Part shown: positions 5,076 to 51,181 of the stretch, one piece after another
Layout: every line of letters begins with the position of its first letter
How positions within the stretch are numbered: position 1 is the stretch's first letter
Assembly: GCA_016935665.1 (NCBI GenBank)
Contig: JAFGQN010000203.1
Span: forward strand, 49,237-113,236
Length of the DNA stretch: 64,000 bases
Direction of reading: 5' to 3'
Source of the DNA: Deltaproteobacteria bacterium
GTDB lineage: Bacteria; Myxococcota_A; Polyangia; JAAYKL01
The notes under the pieces: generated by a model
What the model was told of the DNA's origin: nothing
The model's database searches: none
What the model saw: the letters and a program-made list of their open reading frames with translations, nothing else
Made by a program: the position numbers and the translations under genes

Positions 5076-5600
5076 TTGCAGGAACATATAAACATCGACA
5101 TTTTGTTTACGGAGCACGCGCCGTTTCTGGGACGCGTCATTGAACGTATTTCCGGCAGGGGGCCGCACGTCGATGACATACTGCAGGAAACCTTTATTGT
5201 TGCGTATAAAAAGCGCCACAAATTCGATGCCTCAAAATCACTGCCGCGCACCTGGCTGTATGGCATTGCGGTAAAGCTCTGTTTGGGCCATGAACGCGGA
5301 AAACGGCGATTTAACCTGTTTTATAACAGATTCTCCAGCGAGATAACGGAGTCGCCCAGACGGCCGGATGACTTGATGGAACAGGAATCTTTGACGCGCA
5401 CAGTTCGCAACGCCATTGAAAAAATGCCCATGAAGCAGCGCGAGGTATTTGTGCTTTTCGAATTGGAAGAAATGGATGGCAGGCAAATCAGCGAATTGCT
5501 CAACATACCGGAGGGGACGGTGTGGACCCGTTTGTTGCACGGCAGAAAACACTTTAAAAAACAAATAGCCCGAATTACCGGGACCGGTGGTATCAGATGA
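5076..5600 (+). CDS. ECF-type RNA polymerase sigma-70 factor
   Basis: Region 2 (DDILQETFIVAYKKRHKFD...PRTWLYGIAVK) and region 4 HTH (REVFVLFELEEMDGRQISELLNIPEGTVWTRL). The track start is a TTG; the exact start is uncertain. Confidence 0.85.
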   Translation: MQEHINIDILFTEHAPFLGRVIERISGRGPHVDDILQETFIVAYKKRHKFDASKSLPRTWLYGIAVKLCLGHERGKRRFNLFYNRFSSEITESPRRPDDLMEQESLTRTVRNAIEKMPMKQREVFVLFELEEMDGRQISELLNIPEGTVWTRLLHGRKHFKKQIARITGTGGIR

Positions 5601-16896: not shown

Positions 16897-18474
16897 GTGA
16901 GTGACACGCCACTTCAGTCAAAGAACGAGGAAAATCAGGTGACATCCAAAAAAACAGCTGTGATTATTGGCGCGGGCCCCGCTGGACTTACCGCGGCATA
17001 CGAATTGGTAAATCGAACAAATATAACACCTCTGATAATCGAAGCGACAGACGCCATCGGGGGGATTTCCAAAACAGTGAATTACAAGGGAAACAGAATG
17101 GATATTGGTGGCCATCGGTTTTTTTCGAAATCCAAAAAAGTGATGGACTGGTGGTTGAATATTCTTCCCCTTGAGGAAACCGCGTCGGATTTGCCAGGGT
17201 ATTCGACTGCTCATTTGACCCGGCGGGCCAACGCGGCGGAGCAGGACGCGGTAATGCTGGTCCGCAATCGGCTATCCAGAATATATTATCTGCGTAAATT
17301 TTTTGATTATCCGATTACCCTGAACTGGAATACTATTTCCAATCTGGGTATTTTTCGAATGGGAGAACTGGGGCTTTCATACTTAAACGCAACGCTGTTT
17401 CCCATTCGCAACGAGCAATCTCTCGAAGATTTTCTGGTAAACCGCTTTGGCAAACGCCTGTATCGGACATTTTTTAAAGACTACACCGAAAAAGTCTGGG
17501 GGGTGCCCTGCAAGGAGATTGGCGCAGACTGGGGCGCTCAGCGAATCAAAGGTCTATCCATTCGGAAGGCTTTGGGGCATGCCGTTTCACAGGTTTTAAA
17601 ATCGCAAAAAGCGCTGGCCACGCAAAAAGTTGAGACGAGCCTGATTAATCGGTTTCTGTATCCAAAATTTGGACCGGGGCAGTTGTGGGAGAACGTGGCC
17701 GCACAGGTGGTTGAAAAGGGCGCGTGCATCCAGATGAACGAACGTGTGGTCGGGATTGACGTTTCTGATGGTAAAGTGATCTCGGTGACGACAGCCAACA
17801 GTGAAGGCCGTGAAACAAAATACCAGGCGGACTATGTTTTTTCGACAATGCCCGTGAAAGATTTGGTTGTGGCCATGGGGACGGTGCCGCCAAACAACGT
17901 GAAGCGCGTGGCCGACGGCTTGATGTACCGGGATTTTGTCACGGTGGGGTTGCTGCTTAAAAAAATGAAGGGGGATTTAAACGGCATCAGGGATAACTGG
18001 ATATACATACAGGAATCAGATGTAAAAATAGGGCGGCTTCAGGTGTTCAACAATTGGAGCCCGTACATGGTGGCCGATTCCGCCAACGTCTGGCTGGGAC
18101 TTGAATATTTTTGCAACGAAGGCGACGAACTGTGGCAAATGACCGATGACGAATTCGCGCAATTCGCCATTTCGGAGATGACAAAAATCGATATGATTGA
18201 ACAGGATGACGTCATCGATGCCAAGACGATTCGGGTACCCAAAACCTATCCCGGATATTTTGGAACCTACAGTGAGTTCAGCGTTGTTGAATCCTGGATG
18301 AATACTATCGAAAATCTATATCTGGTGGGCCGAAACGGAATGCATCGATACAACAACCAGGATCACTCAATGCTATCGGCGATAACTGCAGTAGACAATA
18401 TCATTGAAGGTCGAATCGATAAATCCAATATCTGGGCGGTCAATACAGAAGACGAGTATCACGAAGAAAAATAG
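16897..18474 (+). CDS. NAD(P)/FAD-dependent oxidoreductase (amine-oxidase / UDP-galactopyranose-mutase-like Rossmann enzyme)
   Basis: N-terminal dinucleotide-binding motif [17 protein letters not shown] and GGHRFFSK. 525 aa. A GTG at 16939 is an alternative start. Confidence 0.6.
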
Positions 18475-18489
18475 ATTGGGACCCACCCC

Positions 18490-19113
18490 TTAAAGACGCC
18501 GATAGACACCCATCACAACACCCAGTAACTGCATGGGGAGAAAATCCTGACGACGAACCATGACAGGTGAGCAGTTGCTGTTGGCGGGCACAAAGCGGAT
18601 ATGGTCCCGCTCTGGATGATAATAGCGCACTGCTGCATTGTCTCCCAGAAGCGCCACCACCACATCGCCTTTTTCGGCAAACATCTGCTTTTTAACAAAG
18701 ATAAAATCGCCATTGTGAATTCCAGCCTGCAACATGGCATCGCCGTTCACCCACATGCCAAATACTTCTTTGGTATTGCCAAGCAGGAACCGGTCAACGG
18801 TGATGTAATCTTCGATGTTCTGTTCTGAGAGAACAGGCTGTCCGGCAGTAACGCGACCCACAACTGGAATTTTAACCGTATCAGACTGCTTTTTGTCTTC
18901 CATGTTGACAGGCCTTAGCGCACGCGATTTCATGTCTTCGCGTTTTAAATACCCTTTGCGCTCCAATGCTCTCAAATGGTCGTTCACACCGTTGGTCGAA
19001 CGAATTCCCATGTGTCGTCCAATTTCACGCAACGTTGGGGGGTAACCGCGTTCTGTAATGGAGCTGGTGATGTAGTCGAGCACTTTTTCCTGTCTTTTGG
19101 TCAATCCTTGCAT
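18490..19113 (-). CDS. lexA: LexA-family repressor with Ala at the catalytic-Ser position (wHTH + S24 peptidase-like domain)
   Basis: wHTH MQGLTKRQEKVLDYITSSITERGYPPTLREIGRHMGIRSTNGVNDHLRALERKGYL. Ala-Gly cleavage site (RVTAGQPV) and Lys (FIFVKKQ) are present, but the GDSM nucleophile motif reads GDAM (codon gcc, checked in the nucleotide sequence). Start ATG preceded by GGAGGAAAAAAAAACGT. Confidence 0.8.
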   Translation of the reverse strand: MQGLTKRQEKVLDYITSSITERGYPPTLREIGRHMGIRSTNGVNDHLRALERKGYLKREDMKSRALRPVNMEDKKQSDTVKIPVVGRVTAGQPVLSEQNIEDYITVDRFLLGNTKEVFGMWVNGDAMLQAGIHNGDFIFVKKQMFAEKGDVVVALLGDNAAVRYYHPERDHIRFVPANSNCSPVMVRRQDFLPMQLLGVVMGVYRRL

Positions 19114-19141
19114 ACGTTTTTTTTTCCTCCACAAACGACAA

Positions 19142-19157
19142 CTGTTATTGGGTGCAG
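19142..19157. promoter_or_regulatory. Candidate LexA (SOS) box CTGT-N8-GCAG upstream of lexA
   Basis: CTGTTATTGGGTGCAG lies 29 bp upstream of the lexA ATG. It has one mismatch to the proteobacterial CTGT-N8-ACAG consensus, and the LexA box of this lineage is unknown. Confidence 0.2.
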
Positions 19158-19258
19158 TAAGTGATAGTGATACTACTGAACAAGAGAATACAGAGTCAAA
19201 TTGTTGGCATTAATTTTGTGAAAATTATGGAATTGTTTTTGGGCAGGAGCAAATTTAA

Positions 19259-22200
19259 TTAGCGGATTAGTGCGGATTCGCTGTTCATGCGTTCTGTAAT
19301 CAGCACAAACTTCTGAAAGTCGGTATAGTGTTCTGGTGCAATTCGCTGGATGTTAAGGTGTGTTTTCCGTTCGATACGCACACGGTGATTTTCTGTTTCA
19401 GTTTCATAGCGGATGCAATATTCGGCACGCCCGCTGGCGTCCGACACGCATTGGGATTGCGGAAGCTGTGAAACCGCAAGGGTTTGAGGTAATTCAATAT
19501 CAACAACATAAGTGGATTTCATATAAGTGGCCAATACCAGTGGCATCGCGCGTTTTGCCAGACCGCCTGTCAACTGCGTGAAATCGGTTTTGAGTGGAAT
19601 AAACAAGTGGCTGCCGTTTGCTGTCTGCTGCAGCATTCCCTCCAATCGGATGTGGTACACCACAGTGAGAGGCACATCGCCATCGTGGATATTTCGAAGT
19701 GAAAAATCCTGCAGTACCGCTTCGGGAAACTTCGATGCCAGCAGATGTTCTTCTACAATTCGACGGTGCTCAGATTTTGAACCTTTAAACAGCGACCGCA
19801 ACAACGATGCCATTTCGCCAGTAATGGATTCTGTTACGGTGCCTGTGCCGCTACCATTGTCGTCGAGCGCAATAGTGGCGTCTATTACTGTTTCATCCAG
19901 AGGGATTCGTCCGGAATTTGTTTTTGCTATCTCACATGTATCTGGCAGCAACACGGATTGATGCTTCAGTTCTGCTGGCAATGTTCCCATTAAGGTCTCG
20001 TCGGCATCCATATGAACCCACGTGCCATCCGGCAGCAAAATCAACGGACTGCTATAGCGATTCATGTCCGGAATAGCGGAACGGGTGTGGTCACCCCACG
20101 CATGAGTGGCCAGTCCCAACCTGGCGTTGATACCCACTGCATTTAACATTGTTTGGAACAGACGCGCCCGGTTGCCCCGTCGACGACTGTAAATGTGTGT
20201 AACAGGCTCAAAGAGCATTGAGTCGTTTTCGATGTTTCGAATAATCCAGGTGTATATCCGATCGGCCTTTTTCGAATCGGGTGCATTTGACTCACCCTTC
20301 AGCGCAATTTTTGTGGCGAACTGTTTCAACTTTGGACTCTGCTGTGATTTACCGTGCAACAGTGTTGTATACCACTCACAGAGTGCTCTGTTGTTCGCCG
20401 CCGCCGTCACGCGAACAGACGGTAGGAATTCGAGGGCATCCGGTGTGTCCGGCTCGCTTTGCAGCGGTTCGATATTGCGGCGTCTAAAGGTGACCACCTG
20501 AATATTATCTGTCAGGCGCGTATTTGGTTCGGGCGCATCTCCCCGTGGGTCAAACTGCAGCGGCATTTCCCTCGGCGCAACAACAATCAGTTCCGAGCGT
20601 ACAAAAGTACTGTTGAAATCCTGAAAAAAGAACGGCTCGGAGTCAAAACCTCCCTTGAATACGTCATGTGGCGGCAGATAGCTGATGCCTTCATATTCCA
20701 CGTAATCGCCAATGGCCAGTCTGGGCATCGACAATGTGGATTTGTTATCGATGGGAGATGGATACAGCACACTTAAATCCGGTTTGATAACTCTGGCCTG
20801 AAGAATTTCGGCTCCTGGAGGAACAGGGAGTTCGCCATACTCGCTGACGGCATCCATGGAGTTGATGCGCCCCACCCAGTGCACCAAACGCATCCCGGCG
20901 CCAAACTTATCGATTATAAGCACCATTCTATCCAGCACCCACGAAAAGTCTCTATCGCTGGTGGAATTTCCTGCCTGATAATCCGCAACCACTTTCAAAC
21001 CATCCACACGATAGGAATTTATCGACATGCCTCCAGCCACTTCGTCACAAGCATACTGCAAATCAGGTCGAAGGGGCATGGCAGCCTGACTGCGACAGAT
21101 CTCCATGGCCTTCTTCGTCTGTGATGTGGCGTGGTATGCGTCAATCAAATACAGTTTGGGCGCCATGGCCAACGGAAATCTTTTATTCGCGGCATTCAAC
21201 TGGGAAATGGCATCTGTTTCTTTGCCCGCGTGTAACAGCGCCATGGCCGTGTCTATTGCGGCTTCGGGAGAAAACGGCGTCTGCTGCGAAATATGCGCCA
21301 GTTCTCCTGCGGCGGCATCAAACTTTAAACGTCTTGAAAATTCAGTAGCCAGGGCGGTGTTGGATAGCGTGCACTTTGTAATTTGTTGCGCCGTTTCCAT
21401 TGCATCATCAAATCGATTTTCCTCAACTGAAAACGCATAGTCCCACATCAGGATGGGGCAGGCATTGTCGCCAAGAATGGTCTTTGCCCCCATAAGATAT
21501 TCCTGTGCAAATGGCATCCATCTTTTTTCATACGCCAACTCCGCAGCGGTCAGATAAAGCGTTGGCTCCTTTGGCGCGGCCTTAATGGATTCATTTACAA
21601 TATCAAATGCGTCCTGCGTGCGCTCATTGCGGTTCGCTGCCTGCGCCAGAAAACGCGCCGCCCTGTACAGACGCGAATCCCTTTGAAACGCGTGTTCATA
21701 TTGCTGCCGCGCCGTTTCCATGCCCGTTTCGATTGCATTGTACGGAGACGTCAGGGCCGCTTCCGCTTTTAAAAGCGCTTGAAAAGGAGCGTTGTCGTTC
21801 AGCTTTGACACCTCCGCCTGCCACTGGTGGGGCGCCACATTCCACAGGTTGTATCGCAATTGGGCCAATCGAGCCGATTCCGAAAGCGGAGCGGGAAAAC
21901 GAATCCCAGTTAATTTCGTCGGTATTGGGGCAGTGGTGAGCGGGAATGATTCGGAGTCATGCAACAGGACCGATTGGTGCATGGTGATCGCCGCCAGGGA
22001 AAATGACGGAGTGTACTCGGTGGCAAATGCCGAAACACTTATCTGGTGACTCCCCGGCGGCAGTGTCGCCGAAAGCCATCTGCTTTCAGGGAGCCATCGT
22101 TCCTGAGAGGTCTGGATGTATGCTGCTTCTCCATCGATATAAATAGTGGCATCGGAATTGCTCTGAAAACGAAACCATACCGTTTGAGGTGTTGAAAGAT

Positions 22201-22930
22201 GGATAGCGGTGCGGGCGACAACATATCCGGTGTTGTCGTCTGGCAGGGGTTGCGACGTAATTTGACACACATCAAACGTGCGATTCTCCACGGGGATCAA
22301 CGGGCGGCCGGCGCCAGCGGACAGCTGCCCTGGCCATATGGGCGATTCAATCAGTTTCGCAAGAGAACGTCTGCCCGTTATGTCTGTTGATAGAGGACCA
22401 GTCAGTTGCCATCGTAAAAGACAGCCCGTATTCTCAAGCAGTTTGAGCGCATCGTCATGTCCCCGTTTCTGTGCAAAGGAAAACTGAAGAATGCGTAATT
22501 GAAACAAGGCTTCAGGCGACAGTGTACCCGGTGCTGCGGACCATTCTTTCAGATGCGGCGAAATGCGTTGCTCAAAATTTTGCACGCGGTGCCGCAACTG
22601 AACCAGCGCAATCGCCGCTGCGGTCCCTTCCCAGAATAGATTCGGCGCTGTACGCGCGACCGAAACGGTGCGTAGATATTTTTCAAACGCTTCCTCGGGA
22701 GTTCCTGTTTCATCCAGAATATATGCCAATATGTAGTTCGCCTCAGGCGTATTGCGTTGACGCAGTTGGTTTTCCAGGGAGGCAATATCGCTTTCTTTGA
22801 AAAAAAGCGACTTTGCCGGCGCTTGCCCACCGCTCCAATTTTGTGAATGAACCGTTTGGGCGGGGATAGAAGCGCAGGATGAAATAAAAAGATACAGCAG
22901 TATGATAACAGCGTTCAACGAGCGAAACAT
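19259..22930 (-). CDS. Large secreted TPR/repeat protein with a degenerate transglutaminase-like domain (Cys and His lost)
   Basis: 1,223 aa. Signal peptide MFRSLNAVIILLYLFISSCAS. The segment aligned to the paralogue's catalytic core reads RRGNRARLFQTMLNAVGINARLGLA and ...SSPLILLPDGTWVHMDAD. The start ATG overlaps the upstream gene's TAA by 1 nt. Confidence 0.6.
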   Translation of the reverse strand: MFRSLNAVIILLYLFISSCASIPAQTVHSQNWSGGQAPAKSLFFKESDIASLENQLRQRNTPEANYILAYILDETGTPEEAFEKYLRTVSVARTAPNLFWEGTAAAIALVQLRHRVQNFEQRISPHLKEWSAAPGTLSPEALFQLRILQFSFAQKRGHDDALKLLENTGCLLRWQLTGPLSTDITGRRSLAKLIESPIWPGQLSAGAGRPLIPVENRTFDVCQITSQPLPDDNTGYVVARTAIHLSTPQTVWFRFQSNSDATIYIDGEAAYIQTSQERWLPESRWLSATLPPGSHQISVSAFATEYTPSFSLAAITMHQSVLLHDSESFPLTTAPIPTKLTGIRFPAPLSESARLAQLRYNLWNVAPHQWQAEVSKLNDNAPFQALLKAEAALTSPYNAIETGMETARQQYEHAFQRDSRLYRAARFLAQAANRNERTQDAFDIVNESIKAAPKEPTLYLTAAELAYEKRWMPFAQEYLMGAKTILGDNACPILMWDYAFSVEENRFDDAMETAQQITKCTLSNTALATEFSRRLKFDAAAGELAHISQQTPFSPEAAIDTAMALLHAGKETDAISQLNAANKRFPLAMAPKLYLIDAYHATSQTKKAMEICRSQAAMPLRPDLQYACDEVAGGMSINSYRVDGLKVVADYQAGNSTSDRDFSWVLDRMVLIIDKFGAGMRLVHWVGRINSMDAVSEYGELPVPPGAEILQARVIKPDLSVLYPSPIDNKSTLSMPRLAIGDYVEYEGISYLPPHDVFKGGFDSEPFFFQDFNSTFVRSELIVVAPREMPLQFDPRGDAPEPNTRLTDNIQVVTFRRRNIEPLQSEPDTPDALEFLPSVRVTAAANNRALCEWYTTLLHGKSQQSPKLKQFATKIALKGESNAPDSKKADRIYTWIIRNIENDSMLFEPVTHIYSRRRGNRARLFQTMLNAVGINARLGLATHAWGDHTRSAIPDMNRYSSPLILLPDGTWVHMDADETLMGTLPAELKHQSVLLPDTCEIAKTNSGRIPLDETVIDATIALDDNGSGTGTVTESITGEMASLLRSLFKGSKSEHRRIVEEHLLASKFPEAVLQDFSLRNIHDGDVPLTVVYHIRLEGMLQQTANGSHLFIPLKTDFTQLTGGLAKRAMPLVLATYMKSTYVVDIELPQTLAVSQLPQSQCVSDASGRAEYCIRYETETENHRVRIERKTHLNIQRIAPEHYTDFQKFVLITERMNSESALIR

Positions 22931-25900
22931 TATTTTGCTTCTCCTTTGCGATGGAGCGTAATTCGCGCGCGCTCCGCCGCGTCCACCGCCAGTACAAACC
23001 GCAGGAAATCGCCATATTCAGACACCTCCACCACCTGCTTTGTCAAACTGAATGTGCGTGTCACCGTCAGTCCTCCCGCTGTTTTTCGAATGCGTCGCTC
23101 ATACGCGCCAAAGTCGGAGACAATGCGGGCATCGTTGACAGGTGTTTCGGCGTTGTACTGATGTGGAACAAGATACCGAATGGTCAGCTCCGTTGTGCGG
23201 GCGGGGCCCACCTGTAGCGGGTGACGTCGTTTTTGCAACGGAGCAAATTTGGGCTTTAGTTTCATGGGAGGCATTACTTCAAATGACAGGGTCCCAAAAT
23301 TTTGTTTCGCCAACTGCGGTATCCGGGCAAAAAAGGCAATCTGAGGGGTTTTTTCCAGGTCTTTCAAATTTAAAAAGTCAGACGATTCCATTTGAATGGC
23401 GGGATATCGTTCGGAAAACCGTTCTTCAAGAATCTGCTTATCGCTGGCGGTTGCGAACGTGGTGCGCAGCCATGGTGCAAAAGGCGCCCCGGATGCGCTC
23501 ATCGTTCCGTTTATGGTTGCGCTGCCATCCGATGCAATGGTTATCGTCTCTGTTTCAATAAACGTGGATGCAGCGCTGTCACGGACAGTCGTATTTCGCA
23601 ATTTTACAGGTGAAACACCAATCACCAGCGCCTCTATCCCCTGGTCTTCGAAGGGCATGTCGTTTACCCCATGAAATGTGGCTGTCCCATCCAGCCATAA
23701 ATCGTATTTGGGTACGTATGCAATGGCGTGATTGAACAGTGAGAGGGAAGGGTGCTGCATGCGTATCTGACCAGCGGACCGGGTACGCACAAGCGCTACA
23801 TGGGCCTGTATACCGGCTTCGTTCAACATGGCTACCAGAAGAGTGGCGGTGTCTTTGCAATCGCCAAAGCCGCGGGCACGCACCTGAGAGGTACTGTATG
23901 GTTTGTAGCCATGAATACCAAATTCCAGACCCACGTATCGGATGTTGGTAGTTACCCAGCTGTAAACGGCTGCAATTTTATCCCGGTCGTTTCGACGATT
24001 TCTAATCAATTTCTGAACCAGCGATTTCAGCGATGTGTCCCCTTTGAGCTGGGGACGAATCAGTTCCGCGTACCACGATTCCATTTGGGACCAATCCTGC
24101 CAGGAGGTGGCGTGGACGTATTCCACCAGCGACATAGCGCCGGGGACATCCGGCTCGTCGGGGATGGCAGGGAGATTTTGTGCTGTAAATACAGTTATAT
24201 CCATATCATCCGCCTTTGTGTCAACTCTACGGACGGGGGTGGACAGTTCAAAGTATACTGGAAACGTTTTGGGGCGTATGAGGGCAAACTGGAACAGCGC
24301 CACCGGGATATCGCTGTTGATCGGGATAATGGTGCCAAAGTAGTTTCCAAACATATTCTCCTGGCCAATATCATCAACGCGAAATTGAAATTCCACCACA
24401 TCTCCCACGGCCGGTCTGGGCAATTCCACCACTTCCGCCTCAATGTCGTAATAGAGCCGATACCAGGGTTCTGACACCGGGAAGGTGGCGCGTCCTGTGG
24501 CCTGTTCGATGGTGCCATCGGTTTTGAACAACCGGGCCTTAAGCAGCTGAATCGTCTGAGTGGAGGAAAATTGCTCGCTGTACTGCTGCCATTGTCTGGC
24601 GCCATCGTCGGTGGCGATATAAGCAACCACCTGCGTGACGGTGGACGACAGACCGTTTTCGTGGACCTGAATGACGGTGTTGTTTACCAGGAGACAGTCC
24701 TCCTGCCGGTTTTCACAGAAGTGGCCTTTTTTTGTAAATGTTTGTGGGGAAATAAGCCAGGGCGTCGCCAGCGTGTCCTCCGGTTGCAGGAATGACAGAT
24801 ATGCACGCAATTGGGTATCCTGCGGGGATTGCCGCAAACTGCCGGTCAGATATGTAAGCGCGCGATCTTTGTCTCTGTGGATATAAAACTCTCCGGCAAA
24901 CTTTCGGTATTCACTAACCCCCGGCGCTTTTGCATGCAGGTCATCGAGGAGGGCAATCAGTGGTTTGGTGAGAGAAGCGCCGTCCATCAGTTTCGCCAGT
25001 TCGAGAACCGTTTCAATGGGGGGCGCGCCAATGAGCTGCCAGGATTTCAATGTTTGCTGTACGGATTTGTCAATGCCATCCACCGACAAACGCAGTATCT
25101 GCAGATGACGGTCGAAATTCCCAAAATCGCTGTCCAGCGCTTTTTTTAAAATGGTTGTTGTGTGTACATCTGCCGGCATCCCTTCCTGGCTATCGGCCAC
25201 ACAACCGGCGAGCAGCGGGGAGAGGGGACGGCCGATGAGCTGTTTTCTGAGTTGTCGCCCGGTCTCCGGCAGAAATATATTGTAGTAATTGAGTATCGCA
25301 CAAATGACTTCATCGGATGCGTCCGGGCGTTTTGACGCTTCGATAAGATCGAACTGCGCATTGCGATAAAGCGGCGCGGCAGCGTCCAAAATCAGCAGTT
25401 TCGTTTTGGCTTCTGCATTTTCCACATCCTTTTCCAAAACATGCATATATGCCTGGCGCTGCTCATTCACATCCAATGTCAGTTGTGCGGCTGTGAAGCA
25501 GAACTCGAAGGACTTCAATTCCTCACAGGCGCTGAATGCGGCATCCCTTTGAGCGGTGTCTTTTTTTGCGGCGCCGGTCAGATGTGCGTACTTTGCAAAA
25601 TAGCCGTTATGGGCAGGACGCACAGGTCCTTTGGGCGCAGGTTTTAACAGTTGCAGCAGAGACGCCGACTTTGGCGCCGTCGCCACTTCAGTGTGAACGG
25701 GGGGACGAAATTCGGCACGCTCATTAAACGGGAGCACTGGCTGTTCGTTGGAATCGAGAAACCGGGCGTAAAAAGAAAGGGTACCACTCTCATCGCTGCA
25801 GACTTTGACAGTGATGCTTTCTTTGCCCTGTTCCAGCCGCACGGGGATGTGGAATCTGTTTATATCGGCGTCGTCAAATTGGGTATCTTCCAAAACCCGC

Positions 25901-26535
25901 GTATTATTGACGTAGACCCGTGCCTGACCTCCGGCGCCAAACCAAAGATGATAGTTGTCGGTGCGCGGAACGGCCACATGGGTTTGTGCGACAACACATA
26001 TATCTTTTGCTGATGAGAAGAGGGGTTCCATCGTTACTTTTCCAAGACGATGAGAGAGCCAGCTGGATTGGAACAGACATGGCCCTGCGCTTTTGGACGG
26101 TGTGCAATTGGGTGCCGTTGGCAGTGGTGCGGGTGAATCATTGTCGATGATAAACGATTCAGCAAGTCCTGTGCCCGACTCGTTGGGAAATGGACCGGCA
26201 AATTGCCACCGGGTTAAAAATCCCATTTGTTCAATCGCATGGTTGGCGTCTTTGGGGTGGCCAGTCATGAGTTTTAAAGTGGCCAGCAGATGACGGGCCC
26301 GGTGTCTTGCGGCCGGCTGCAAAGCGGGGAGCTGCAGTGCGCTTTCCAGCTCGGCGGTGGCAACCTTTGCTCCAAATGAACCATACTGCTCAAAAATCTG
26401 CAAAACGAGCAAATCGGCAAAACGGGAATTCGGTTTTTGCTTCAACACTGAGAGTGCTCTGGAGTCTGCCAGTGCCGAAGTTGCTGCGAGCAGCGTGCAC
26501 ATGACCCCCAATAAAAACAGTTTACGTATCTTCAT
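22930..26535 (-). CDS. Large secreted protein with an intact transglutaminase-like cysteine-protease core (DUF3857/DUF3858-like architecture)
   Basis: About 1,200 aa. Signal peptide MKIRKLFLLGVMCTLLAATSALA. Core RGFGDCKDTATLLVAMLNEAGIQAHVALV (Cys), FNHAIAYV (His) and LWLDGTA (Asp). Start chosen at the MKIRK ATG; the track uses an upstream TTG at 26571. Confidence 0.7.
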   Translation of the reverse strand: MKIRKLFLLGVMCTLLAATSALADSRALSVLKQKPNSRFADLLVLQIFEQYGSFGAKVATAELESALQLPALQPAARHRARHLLATLKLMTGHPKDANHAIEQMGFLTRWQFAGPFPNESGTGLAESFIIDNDSPAPLPTAPNCTPSKSAGPCLFQSSWLSHRLGKVTMEPLFSSAKDICVVAQTHVAVPRTDNYHLWFGAGGQARVYVNNTRVLEDTQFDDADINRFHIPVRLEQGKESITVKVCSDESGTLSFYARFLDSNEQPVLPFNERAEFRPPVHTEVATAPKSASLLQLLKPAPKGPVRPAHNGYFAKYAHLTGAAKKDTAQRDAAFSACEELKSFEFCFTAAQLTLDVNEQRQAYMHVLEKDVENAEAKTKLLILDAAAPLYRNAQFDLIEASKRPDASDEVICAILNYYNIFLPETGRQLRKQLIGRPLSPLLAGCVADSQEGMPADVHTTTILKKALDSDFGNFDRHLQILRLSVDGIDKSVQQTLKSWQLIGAPPIETVLELAKLMDGASLTKPLIALLDDLHAKAPGVSEYRKFAGEFYIHRDKDRALTYLTGSLRQSPQDTQLRAYLSFLQPEDTLATPWLISPQTFTKKGHFCENRQEDCLLVNNTVIQVHENGLSSTVTQVVAYIATDDGARQWQQYSEQFSSTQTIQLLKARLFKTDGTIEQATGRATFPVSEPWYRLYYDIEAEVVELPRPAVGDVVEFQFRVDDIGQENMFGNYFGTIIPINSDIPVALFQFALIRPKTFPVYFELSTPVRRVDTKADDMDITVFTAQNLPAIPDEPDVPGAMSLVEYVHATSWQDWSQMESWYAELIRPQLKGDTSLKSLVQKLIRNRRNDRDKIAAVYSWVTTNIRYVGLEFGIHGYKPYSTSQVRARGFGDCKDTATLLVAMLNEAGIQAHVALVRTRSAGQIRMQHPSLSLFNHAIAYVPKYDLWLDGTATFHGVNDMPFEDQGIEALVIGVSPVKLRNTTVRDSAASTFIETETITIASDGSATINGTMSASGAPFAPWLRTTFATASDKQILEERFSERYPAIQMESSDFLNLKDLEKTPQIAFFARIPQLAKQNFGTLSFEVMPPMKLKPKFAPLQKRRHPLQVGPARTTELTIRYLVPHQYNAETPVNDARIVSDFGAYERRIRKTAGGLTVTRTFSLTKQVVEVSEYGDFLRFVLAVDAAERARITLHRKGEAK

Positions 26536-26704
26536 TTGACGTGAGTATAAGAGGCTGCGTTGGAAAAGCAATTTGGATTTAAAATGAATGAATGCGAAGC
26601 CCTGTTTTTCAATTCAATCCTCCGTTATCGTTTGACCTGTGCGCCCAGACCTTGTCTTATGCCGACAATCAACTATGTGGAAAGTTCCCTTAAACAGAGT
26701 GGAT

Positions 26705-47383: not shown

Positions 47384-48628
47384 ATGGAAAAGATCAAAAC
47401 GGATGTGACTGTTCTTCATATTGAAAGTGATGCTGACAACCGGCGTCTGGTTCATGAAATACTTTCGAACAACGGTATTAATGTAGTTGAAGCGAGCAAT
47501 GGTATTGATGGCATCCATAAGGCGTTATCCACTTCGCCCGATGTTATTTTGCTGGACATCGCTCTGCCGGATTTGGATGGTTATGAAGTCACCCTGAAAA
47601 TACGAGGCGACGAGCGCGGAAAAAAAGTACCCATCGTGGCGTTGTCTACTCAGAATGATAAAAAAATGATTCAGGCTGTGGGCTGTGATGGATTGATCGT
47701 TAAACCCATTGAAATTTCAAAGCTTCCCGAACAGATTCGCGCGTTTGCCAAAGCCGGCAGACCGACTGTGCAGATTCGAAGCGATGCAGATAGAGATGAC
47801 GAAAGTGGATTGCTGCTGCTTCAGGGACATAAGTTGGCAGACAAGCTTCAAAAGAAGGTGGAGGAGCTCGAACGCGCCAACCGCGCATTGCTGGAATCGG
47901 AAAAGATCCGAACCGATTTCTATCGAAATTTATCCCATGAATTATCGACCCCCTTGACCCCGGCTGTTGGATACCTGAACATGCTCCTTAACGAGGATTT
48001 GGGCGAACTGACCCCGTTGCAACGCAAAGCCATCGAATCCATTGGACGAGGTGTCACCAAAGTGCGCTCCATGGTCGAAAATCTGCTCGATGTTACCGCT
48101 CTTTCCACCGGAAAGATGTCCTTTTTTTCCAGGGAGTACGATTTTAACATGCAGGCGCGAGAGGCATTGAAGCTCTGCTCGGAACAGTTTCGTGAAAGAG
48201 GGATTCGTGTGGATTCCTCCATTCCCAAATCGCAGTTTGTCGGCATTGGCGATTCGGAGAAACTGCGACGAGCGATGGTTCAATTGCTTGAAAATGCTGT
48301 AAAATTCTGCAAACCCGACGGTCAGGTCCATATATGTACGCGTCGCACCGCCGACAGATTTATGTACCTGGTTTATGATTCAGGGTCCGGAATTCCGGAG
48401 CAGGAACTTCAGGCCATTTTCAAAACATTTTATCAAATCGATGGCTCACCCACCCGCGAGCATGGTGGCACAGGACTGGGTCTGGCGCTGGCACGAAAGA
48501 TCATTGAACGATTTGGCGGAGAGATATGGGCAGAGTCTCCCCCAAAGGAACACGCCATTGGATTTGAATGGGCACAAACGATGGTTGGGTTGTGGGTTCC
48601 GGTGCAGGTTTCGGTAGCAAACGTATAA
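47384..48628 (+). CDS. Hybrid sensor kinase with the receiver first (REC - HisKA - HATPase_c)
   Basis: REC with acidic pocket and Asp (DVILLDIALPDLDGYEV). H-box SHELSTPLTP. G-boxes SGSGIPEQE...GGTGLGLALA. Confidence 0.8.
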   Translation: MEKIKTDVTVLHIESDADNRRLVHEILSNNGINVVEASNGIDGIHKALSTSPDVILLDIALPDLDGYEVTLKIRGDERGKKVPIVALSTQNDKKMIQAVGCDGLIVKPIEISKLPEQIRAFAKAGRPTVQIRSDADRDDESGLLLLQGHKLADKLQKKVEELERANRALLESEKIRTDFYRNLSHELSTPLTPAVGYLNMLLNEDLGELTPLQRKAIESIGRGVTKVRSMVENLLDVTALSTGKMSFFSREYDFNMQAREALKLCSEQFRERGIRVDSSIPKSQFVGIGDSEKLRRAMVQLLENAVKFCKPDGQVHICTRRTADRFMYLVYDSGSGIPEQELQAIFKTFYQIDGSPTREHGGTGLGLALARKIIERFGGEIWAESPPKEHAIGFEWAQTMVGLWVPVQVSVANV

Positions 48629-49183: not shown

Positions 49184-51181
49184 GTGATGTCGCTAACGAT
49201 TTATAAGGTAGTTGTTTTCTCGACTGACAGTTTTGATGTTCTTGGGTTTCGACGTGCGCTAAAAAAAGCATCCATTCACTGTGAAACCGTGTTTATTTCC
49301 GCGTATGAGGAGCTGGAGCAAATCATTCATCAGGAAAATCGCGAAACGTTTGATTTGGCATTGGTTGAGTATGGAGAAAATATAGAGGATTCCTGTCGCG
49401 CGGCCCAGTTGCTCGTGGGTGAAACCGATTTGCCCATTATTGGCATCTTCATGCCCGACAGCTTTGAAACCATCGCCAGGGAACTGTCCGAGGGAATCAC
49501 GAGTTATGTTGTTCAATCTCAAAAGGGAGAACACTTCGATGTGTTGTCCGTACTCATCCGCAACAACGTCCGGTCTCAAACCGATGTGGTGAAGTTTGAC
49601 AGGTTCCGCGAGCAAATCGCCATGTTAAAGCGGGAGCAGCACGCTCTGCTTAATTCGAGTTTGACATTGATTTCATATCATCAGCCCGATACCCGCATTA
49701 TCTGGTCCAATGCGTATGAAGAAGAAGGCGAGGTCAGTTCGTACGACTACCTCGCAGGACGTTTGTGTAAGGAAATCTGGAAAAATGGCGGCATACCCAA
49801 TGGCAAATGCCCCGTGGCCACCGCTGTGGAAACGGGAGAATCTGTCGAAGCGGAAGTGACCACCCTGGATGGATACACTATGCTGCAGCGATCCTATCCA
49901 GTGAAGAATGAAGACGGCAAAGTGGTTGGTGTCATGGCCAGTACTCTCGATATGTCTGCTGTTTCGCCAGCTCAGGAGGCTATGCGCACTGCTGCTCGAA
50001 TTCAGGCATCCGCCACTCTTGCGGGGGGGATTGCACATAAATTCAACAACTTAATGGCAGGGGTCATGGGTAATGTGTCTTTGGCGCTGCAGGATTTGAC
50101 AGAAAACCATCCCGCCTGTCCGTTGCTCTACGAGATTGAGCAGGCGGCTCATACAGCCGGTGAGTTGTCAGAACAATTGTTGGCTTTCGCGCGCGGCGGC
50201 AAATACCTGCCAAAGCGAATCAACATGAACGAGGTGATTACCGAAGCATTGCAAACCCATTCCCGCAGGCTTCCCGGGAAAATAAAGCTGGATCACGAGC
50301 TCACCAAAGATTTGTGGCCCATTGACGCCAATCAGGCGCAAATGGGACTTCTGTTGACGCAGGTATTCAATAATGCTGTTGAAGCGATTGAAGCCAGCGA
50401 CAGATTTCAGAGAGGGGAAGGTCGTATTTCCATCATCACGACCAATGAGCAGATTGTGGATTCCGCCAATTCACAAAAACCGTGGCTGAGAGATGGACGC
50501 TATGTGTGCGTCGCCATCGAAGACAACGGTTGCGGTATGAGCGCGGAAACCCGGCAGAAAATATTTGAACCGTTCTTTACAACGAAGAAAAAGGGTCGTG
50601 GCCTCGGGTTATCCGGTGCTTATGGGATAGTGCGCAGTCACGAAGGACATATTTTTGTTGAATCCGAAAAGGGAAGGGGCACTACCGTGGCAATTCATAT
50701 TCCTGCGACGAATGTGGAAGAATTACCTGTCGAACCACCGGCAAAAGCAATAGCGGAAACACCACGTCCGATTGTACTGGCCCGCGGAAGCGAGACAGTA
50801 CTGGTTGTGGATGACGAAGCGATGCTTCGCAAAGCCATTCACAGACTCCTGAAGCGACTGGGATATACCGTGCTTGAAGCATCCAGTGGCGATGAAGCTG
50901 TGACACTGGCCAAAGAATACGAAGGTCCCATACATATCACCTTACTCGATATGATTATGCCTGGACTGGATGGTATGGACGCCTACCGTCAGTTAAAAGA
51001 ACAGTATCCCACCATGGAAGTAATTGTAATGAGCGGTTACGATCGCGAAACATATGGCGACGCGCTTATCGATGCCGGAGCTGGTGCGTTTATGCAGAAA
51101 CCAGTTCCCATGGATCGAATAGCCTCTGAAATACGCCGCATACTGGACGACAAGGAAACACCGCCGGTTCCTGCCGATTGA
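49184..51181 (+). CDS. Hybrid sensor kinase (pseudo-receiver-like N-terminus - PAS - HisKA - HATPase_c - REC)
   Basis: H-box GIAHKFNNLMAGV. G-boxes ...DNGCGMSAE...GRGLGLSGAYGIV. C-terminal REC with Asp (ITLLDMIMPGLDG). The N-terminal ~110 aa are REC-like but the acceptor position reads LVEYGE. Confidence 0.8.
   Translation: MMSLTIYKVVVFSTDSFDVLGFRRALKKASIHCETVFISAYEELEQIIHQENRETFDLALVEYGENIEDSCRAAQLLVGETDLPIIGIFMPDSFETIARELSEGITSYVVQSQKGEHFDVLSVLIRNNVRSQTDVVKFDRFREQIAMLKREQHALLNSSLTLISYHQPDTRIIWSNAYEEEGEVSSYDYLAGRLCKEIWKNGGIPNGKCPVATAVETGESVEAEVTTLDGYTMLQRSYPVKNEDGKVVGVMASTLDMSAVSPAQEAMRTAARIQASATLAGGIAHKFNNLMAGVMGNVSLALQDLTENHPACPLLYEIEQAAHTAGELSEQLLAFARGGKYLPKRINMNEVITEALQTHSRRLPGKIKLDHELTKDLWPIDANQAQMGLLLTQVFNNAVEAIEASDRFQRGEGRISIITTNEQIVDSANSQKPWLRDGRYVCVAIEDNGCGMSAETRQKIFEPFFTTKKKGRGLGLSGAYGIVRSHEGHIFVESEKGRGTTVAIHIPATNVEELPVEPPAKAIAETPRPIVLARGSETVLVVDDEAMLRKAIHRLLKRLGYTVLEASSGDEAVTLAKEYEGPIHITLLDMIMPGLDGMDAYRQLKEQYPTMEVIVMSGYDRETYGDALIDAGAGAFMQKPVPMDRIASEIRRILDDKETPPVPAD

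Follow-up and report, generated by a model that had tools for sequence, protein, structure and literature searches.

We report that the lexA gene in a 64,000-nucleotide stretch of DNA from a Deltaproteobacteria bacterium (GTDB lineage Bacteria; Myxococcota_A; Polyangia; JAAYKL01; GenBank assembly GCA_016935665.1, contig JAFGQN010000203.1, positions 49,237 to 113,236 of the forward strand), referred to here as the window, encodes a LexA protein in which both members of its catalytic pair, Ser and Lys, are replaced, the nucleophile Ser119 by alanine and the general base Lys156 by arginine (Escherichia coli numbering). Comparisons of protein sequence, promoter and genomic position favour, at a probability of about 0.78, a catalytically dead LexA that is the positional orthologue of the canonical gene in a Polyangia-related (Myxococcota) lineage, and that would have lost self-cleavage by substitution and then kept the resulting state.

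Catalytic residues and cleavage site of the window LexA

The gene and the features of its product are the following.

18490..19113, minus strand: lexA coding sequence, 207 amino acids, ATG at 19113 and stop codon at 18492..18490 (TIGR00498, PF01726 and PF00717)
18919..19113, minus strand: N-terminal LexA winged helix-turn-helix DNA-binding domain, residues 1-65 (PF01726)
18544..18867, minus strand: peptidase S24-like domain, residues 83-190, fold kept and catalytic residues lost (PF00717)
18841..18846, minus strand: codons of Ala90-Gly91, aligned with the E. coli Ala84-Gly85 scissile bond; bond kept
18736..18738, minus strand: codon GCC for Ala126, at the position of nucleophile Ser119 in the alignment to E. 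coli LexA
18625..18639, minus strand: codons of N159-A160-A161-V162-R163, with Arg163 at the position of Lys156, Ala161 at Thr154 and Asn159 at Glu152
19126..19130, minus strand: ribosome-binding site GGAGG, 12 nt 5' of the ATG, read from the sequence

The protein scores 206.7 bits against the whole-protein equivalog TIGR00498 (cutoff 110.95). PF01726 is matched over its full profile length (E 1.7e-27), bearing out the winged helix-turn-helix proposed in the initial annotation, PF00717 is matched at E 1.9e-24, and solved LexA structures align with the protein end to end (E ~1e-31). All homologues begin at MQGLT, and none uses the longer, TTG-initiated open reading frame from 19134. Homology and position identify the protein as LexA; the serine nucleophile and lysine base that define the family are absent from it.

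The GDAM motif of the window protein aligns with GMSM of E. coli LexA, and the protein also lines up position by position with the crystallised S119A mutant 1JHH. The replacement of the nucleophilic serine, first noticed in the initial annotation, is therefore upheld, with the GCC codon placed at 18738..18736 instead of 18738..18740. The Ala-Gly cleavage site reported there is likewise present (A90-G91, 18846..18841). The catalytic lysine had been assigned to the motif FIFVKKQ, which in fact aligns with E. coli H134/K135; the true position of Lys156 (in DDEVTVKRL of E. coli) is occupied by Arg163 (in GDNAAVRYY), encoded by CGC at 18627..18625. Either replacement is known to abolish cleavage in E. 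coli, where S119A alone makes LexA uncleavable (the mutant crystallised as PDB 1JHH) and K156R is an uncleavable, SOS-minus allele (PMC5760743). Two further residues have also changed, Thr154 to Ala161 and Glu152 to Asn159; among relatives that retain Ser and Lys the former is invariant and the latter nearly so, and mutation of Glu152 moves E. coli LexA toward the cleavable conformation (bioRxiv 10.1101/2023.10.30.564768).

Homologues were sought among 5.8 billion protein clusters and the best 120 were taken for analysis. An alignment of orthologues had been proposed in the initial annotation as a check on the substitution; it gives Ala119 in 11 of the 120, comprising the nine closest (70-100% identity) together with P0037 and P0090, and all 11 also carry Arg156. 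Ser and Lys are both present in 108 (hereafter Ser/Lys proteins, as opposed to Ala/Arg proteins), and the remaining one, P0096, combines Ser with Arg. A profile search for further members of the clade added only P0121 and P0122, both Ala/Arg, so that the pair is common to 13 distinct proteins, 12 of them in the clade of the window protein.

The positions that set the two groups apart lie largely in the cleavage machinery. Columns with 85% conservation or more among the 108 Ser/Lys proteins that are altered in Ala/Arg proteins include A83, A90, L113, S119, E152, T154 and K156 (E. coli numbering), and further differences fall at E10, K121, I149 and one Thr near the C-terminus; no new Ser, Thr or Cys is conserved among the clade-specific positions. 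Both A83, beside the scissile bond, and A90, in the cleavage loop, are invariant in the Ser/Lys relatives and variable in the Ala/Arg proteins. The segment RVAAG, essentially fixed in the former, reads VTAG, VATG, ISAG, INAG, ITSG, IIPG or VVPG in the latter, and the scissile pair itself is lost in clade members P0004 (A-T), P0008 (S-G) and P0009 (P-G). Judged from the alignment, these changes appear to be decay specific to cleavage.

Constraint on the rest of the gene was assessed on DNA obtained for seven Ala/Arg loci, including the window. Because synonymous sites are saturated even in the closest pair, we report proportions of nonsynonymous (pN) and synonymous (pS) differences instead of dN/dS. 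Between the window and locus L002, whose LexA is 90% identical, pS is 0.85 (saturated) and pN 0.066. Across the seven loci, pN/pS is 0.09 in the DNA-binding domain and 0.24 in the C-terminal domain, the latter against 0.33 in Ser/Lys relatives. Of the first 68 residues (M1 to P68), 54 do not vary among 17 relatives drawn from the Ala/Arg and Ser/Lys groups, and the recognition helix S39-T40-N41-G42-V43-N44-D45-H46 (STNGVNDH) is the same in both groups. When the window is compared with L002 or L007, LexA shows 86-90% identity and the large gene next to it only 33-36%. The lexA gene is under strong purifying selection. Since Ala126 and Arg163 are themselves invariant within the clade, and the gene as a whole is constrained, the Ala/Arg state is maintained and not drifting.

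These data bear directly on two explanations that would dispense with a functional, uncleavable repressor. The initial annotation had itself raised a single-base error as the trivial alternative, in which the true codon is TCC and the protein an ordinary LexA; a change from TCC (Ser) to GCC (Ala) takes one base, and the source of the window is a metagenome-assembled genome. Yet a protein identical to that of the window also turns up in a sequencing run assembled independently by Logan, and Ala occurs in all 13 distinct proteins, encoded by three codons (GCC, GCG and GCA) across the seven loci with DNA, always together with replacement of Lys156. The Arg codons at these loci are CGC, CGA, AGA and AGG, the CGC of the window lies at least two substitutions from either Lys codon (AAR), and Thr154 and Glu152 are changed as well. 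A metagenome scan with the Ala/Arg alignment added no Ala/Arg DNA, only Ser/Lys loci appearing among the at least 600 matches listed. With codon turnover at both catalytic sites, a sequencing or assembly error is ruled out for practical purposes. Equally negligible is the notion that lexA is a decaying, functionless remnant here. Such decay might be read from the degraded catalytic residues and cleavage-site flanks, but every member has an intact reading frame, pN reaches only 0.07 against saturated synonymous sites, and the DNA-binding domain hardly varies; promoter and ribosome-binding site are conserved, with GGAGG or GGAAGG in the equivalent place across all Ala/Arg loci, and the alanine and arginine are themselves the same across the clade.

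Genomic position, phylogeny and recurrence

Directly upstream of lexA lie two long genes that serve as a synteny anchor.

19259..22930 and 22930..26571, minus strand: two tandem, paralogous genes for proteins of ~1,220 amino acids with DUF3857, transglutaminase-core and TPR domains

The pair precedes the Ala/Arg lexA of both the window and L007, and L002 keeps only the end of the nearer DUF3857 gene, at which point its contig stops. The same pair precedes the Ser/Lys lexA of L003, L005, L010 and L088. Occupying as it does the same syntenic slot as Ser/Lys lexA, the window gene is the positional orthologue of canonical lexA, and it is chromosomal; its closest canonical relatives are 65-70% identical. 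The surroundings are those of an ordinary housekeeping chromosome (49.6% GC), with genes for NAD synthase, HisG, an FKBP isomerase, ribosomal protein S1, cytidylate kinase, IlvD, shikimate-pathway enzymes and LeuA-like proteins. In a scan of GTDB, the best 80 loci came from Polyangia, Polyangiaceae, Sorangium and related metagenome-assembled genomes; two species representatives among them are Ala/Arg (JAKQNG01, 86%, and JAFGVO01, 73%), and no assembly showed two lexA loci among these 80, in which a divergent second copy could be missed.

No conserved partner gene adjoins lexA, the flanks differing among L002, L167, L168 and the window. The gene 3' of lexA is a convergent flavin amine-oxidase-like gene in the window (16897-18474, plus strand) and a sulfatase gene in L002 (1855-4005), while the next genes are shared by both (FKBP, HisG, aminotransferase IV and HEAT), marking a small indel hotspot beside lexA. 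The DUF3857/transglutaminase genes evolve fast, at 33-38% identity where LexA reaches 86-90% and HisG 89%. Elsewhere in the window are hybrid histidine kinase/response-regulator proteins at 47384-48628 and 49184-51181 (plus strand) and an extracytoplasmic function (ECF)-type sigma factor at 5076-5600; such regulators are unremarkable in a myxobacteria-like genome, and no link to lexA was seen.

A neighbour-joining tree with bootstrap, computed with the catalytic columns removed, gave the following support.

Core nine sequences: 100%
P0037, P0090 and P0121: 93%
Core nine together with P0037, P0090 and P0121: 71%
P0122 joining the clade: 8%

The Ala/Arg clade, of about 12 distinct proteins, is monophyletic and nested within the phylogeny of Ser/Lys lexA. 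P0122 (L172 4788-5417) carries Ala119 and Arg156, and its cleavage site reads Pro-Gly; the proteins nearest to it are of the Ser/Lys type (69-70% identity). Its gene sits in the same slot as in L003 and L005, the order being DUF3857 gene, lexA, asd, a gene for a 261-residue protein, pyrF and spoU, although in L172 a single DUF3857 gene precedes lexA. It is most simply explained as a separate conversion at the same locus. Ser119 is kept alongside Arg156 in P0096 (L170 1517-2149), P0133 and P0172, and P0096 shows in addition Gly117 changed to Ser and Thr154 to Ser. These Ser/Arg proteins may be intermediates in which Lys-to-Arg runs ahead of Ser-to-Ala, and the grouping of P0096 and P0133 with different Ser/Lys proteins suggests that the lysine replacement can come first.

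A diversity survey of 150 representatives of 50%-identity clusters recovered the full set of Ala-Gly, Ser, Thr and Lys in 127. A few distant LexA-like proteins in this survey carry Ala with Arg (P0142, P0166, P0175 and P0244) or Gly with Arg (P0199); they are 39-51% identical to the window protein and have no Ala-Gly. One of them, P0175 (L173 6515-7216), lies between divergent runs of small open reading frames with RadC, NUDIX and DUF8336, a setting that resembles a mobile element or the immunity region of a prophage. From its distribution, the Ala/Arg combination appears to be a recurrent end state. Among single-nucleotide replacements that abolish the chemistry, these two are the most conservative, preserving shape and charge.

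The lexA promoter and its SOS box

The promoter of the window gene contains the remains of a LexA operator.

19170..19199, minus strand: lexA promoter, with -35 TTGACT (19199..19194), an 18-nt spacer and -10 TAGTAT (19175..19170), read from the sequence; same layout in related loci
19175..19191, minus strand: SOS box remnant in the promoter spacer, GTATTCTCTT-GTTCAG-T, with the right arm GTTCAG (19181..19176) intact and the left arm degenerate

GTTCAG is found upstream of lexA in 160 of the 160 related loci parsed. In Myxococcus xanthus the SOS box is CTRHAMRYBYGTTCAGS, and its lexA copy is equally placed relative to TTGACT (PMC9705874). Sites were aligned directly on GTTCAG; a position-weight matrix that included the -35 was dropped, being confounded by spacers of 17 versus 18 nt. 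In this alignment the seven nearest Ser/Lys-type promoters, among which we count that of the Ser/Arg protein P0096, keep the AAC-N4-GTT palindrome GGTAAACCgtTGTTCAGTA, with the left arm AAC present in 7 of 7 and the box of P0096 fully intact. In the window clade, all seven Ala/Arg promoters retain only GT..tc...TGTTCAGTA. An A at -6, fixed in the M. xanthus consensus, is found at 57 of the 75 distinct sites of Ser/Lys type versus one of the seven Ala/Arg sites, and M. xanthus boxes that carry T there instead (recN and pafBC) show absent or weak LexA binding (PMC9705874). Because the left arm of the box has decayed, autorepression is probably weakened in the window clade. By contrast with that clade, the P0122 promoter still has an intact box, GGGAAACAACCGTTCAGTA, which is consistent with decay of the operator after the loss of cleavage. 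The box is intact, as GGTAAACCGTTGTTCAGTA, in the P0010 promoter as well as in that of P0122.

A search of the window turned up no other SOS box: GTTCAGTA occurs twice (approximately as expected), no match to the M. xanthus consensus was found in the 64 kb, and of the three intergenic GTTCAG sites no other is box-like. The initial annotation had pointed instead to a weak CTGT-N8-GCAG palindrome upstream of the gene (19142..19157). We rejected it as an operator: the window contains seven copies of the class CTGY-N8-RCAG where about four would be expected, and this copy is conserved only in the 90% identical L002 and not in L007, L008, L167, L168 or L169, as befits a chance occurrence.

A separate element specific to the Ala/Arg clade, GCCAAC(A/T)ATTTGAC (window 19194-19207, minus strand), covers the -35 hexamer plus the adjoining 8 nt upstream and recurs in the equivalent place in L002, L007, L008, L167, L168 and L169. 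At that -35 site the sequence in the nearest Ser/Lys relatives is CCACAACAATTTGAC or unrelated. The clade-specific element may serve as an UP element or be recognised by another factor.

Proposed function, alternatives and known systems

The window LexA would still dimerise through its S24 fold and would still bind operators of the GTTCAG type, while RecA*-stimulated autoproteolysis is predicted from the loss of the dyad to be impossible. Without autoproteolysis, the canonical route by which DNA damage destroys the repressor would be closed, and the expectation in the initial annotation that a natural Ser-to-Ala LexA should be non-inducible by self-cleavage gains support from this loss. The protein may repress a small regulon steadily, at a level set by its dose, with damage-inducible genes probably independent of LexA, as most are in M. 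xanthus. In that species only lexA, recA2 and the pafBC-cyaA operon are under the direct control of LexA, on which the majority of UV-induced genes do not depend (PMC9705874); given so small a role, a relative could lose LexA inducibility at modest cost. If the repressor is relieved at all, candidate routes would be modification, a partner protein, another protease, or binding of RecA* without cleavage.

Several points weigh against a catalytically dead repressor. The case for lost cleavage draws on E. coli mutants, and that for a weakened operator on seven promoters and M. xanthus gel shifts, not on the window protein. Most members (8 of the 11 first found) still have the Ala-Gly bond, and the residues of the pocket that receives RecA Phe203 (V79, V82, F111, L113, V146 and V153; bioRxiv 10.1101/2023.10.30.564768) are largely kept, with L113 alone altered, to Met or Phe. 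The retained bond and pocket may leave room for some RecA* interaction or for cleavage in trans, and damage induction would be preserved if Ala90-Gly91 were still cut by an S24 peptidase or other protease, or if a substitute nucleophile were used. Kim and Little (1993) are reported to have observed intermolecular cleavage of LexA and lambda CI in vitro. We nonetheless judge such cutting very unlikely in this clade: the scissile pair is missing not only from the three clade members listed above but also from P0122 (P-G), the A83 and A90 positions vary freely, no clade-specific Ser, Thr or Cys has arisen that could stand in for the nucleophile, and no gene beside lexA in L002, L167, L168 or the window is conserved as a partner.

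Only 64 kb of the genome are in view, and a divergent second lexA is possible beyond the best 80 GTDB loci. Two lexA genes are known in other bacteria, and the SOS response could be run by a canonical Ser/Lys LexA encoded at another locus, with the window copy serving as a specialised, non-cleavable paralogue. This too is unlikely, since the gene stands in the slot that canonical lexA occupies in related genomes, has those canonical genes (65-70% identity) as its closest relatives, and belongs with the best 80 GTDB loci, among which no assembly gave two. An unlikely extension of the catalytically dead LexA is that a branch of Myxococcota has repeatedly converted LexA into a pseudo-protease, in the window clade and in P0122, with P0096 and P0133 as intermediates changed at Arg156 only. 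The Ala/Arg pair, the Ala-Gly loop and the RecA pocket might then be kept for docking of RecA* and reversible sequestration of the repressor; alternatively, the damage response might have been handed wholly to LexA-independent regulators, with LexA retained on another regulon. Were the former true, sequestration of LexA by RecA* would constitute a non-destructive, resettable SOS switch.

Compared with canonical LexA, as known from E. coli and from M. xanthus, the nearest studied relative, the window protein shares the winged helix-turn-helix and S24 architecture, the length and the Ala-Gly bond, and with M. xanthus also the GTTCAG element in its own promoter. It differs in the replacements of Ser119 by Ala, Lys156 by Arg, Thr154 by Ala and Glu152 by Asn, and its clade differs in the unconstrained flanks of the cleavage site and the decayed left arm of the autoregulatory box. 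The damage response of the Ala/Arg lineage would accordingly not be switchable in the textbook way, and an annotation as 'LexA' is no guarantee of an inducible SOS system. Self-cleavage is taken to define LexA, and a 2021 survey states it to be common to all SOS-type S24 regulators (PMC8565304).

The only natural precedent documented in the literature searched is the LexA of Synechocystis sp. PCC 6803 (Sll1626), which is without the nucleophilic serine and is regarded as non-self-cleaving (PMC1524924, PMC3091678); it is a functional, chromosomally encoded DNA-binding regulator for which phosphorylation or other post-translational tuning has been proposed (PMC7567884). In both cases the catalytic serine is replaced in a conserved, natural chromosomal LexA. 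In Synechocystis, however, Ser has become Asp and Ala-Gly has become Gly-Gly, with the Lys kept, whereas in the window Ser has become Ala and Lys has become Arg, with Ala-Gly kept. The one belongs to the Cyanobacteria; the other is Myxococcota-like and involves a whole clade, recurrent conversion and a DNA-binding domain as in cleavable relatives. The nearest relatives of the window protein being cleavable-type LexA of Polyangia, its loss is independent of the cyanobacterial one. We found no report of a naturally uncleavable LexA in Myxococcota in the literature searched. The Synechocystis exception has usually been viewed as a cyanobacterial oddity, and our analysis indicates that an uncleavable LexA has been reached independently in another phylum, apparently more than once.

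The closest parallel at the residue level is with the E. coli lexA(Ind-) alleles S119A, K156R and K156A, which affect the same two positions, S119A and K156R with residues identical to those of the window. The window protein would be expected to work as they do. Nature thus uses exactly the two substitutions by which geneticists make LexA uncleavable, in a protein whose DNA-binding domain and genomic position are as in cleavable relatives. The natural series of Ser/Lys, Ser/Arg and Ala/Arg proteins, with operators intact or decayed, offers a tool for studying the role of an indestructible SOS repressor and bears on how a damage response may be rewired around it. The E. coli alleles are engineered or selected single mutants that carry a fitness cost under DNA damage, whereas the window lineage has a naturally fixed double substitution that has long been maintained.

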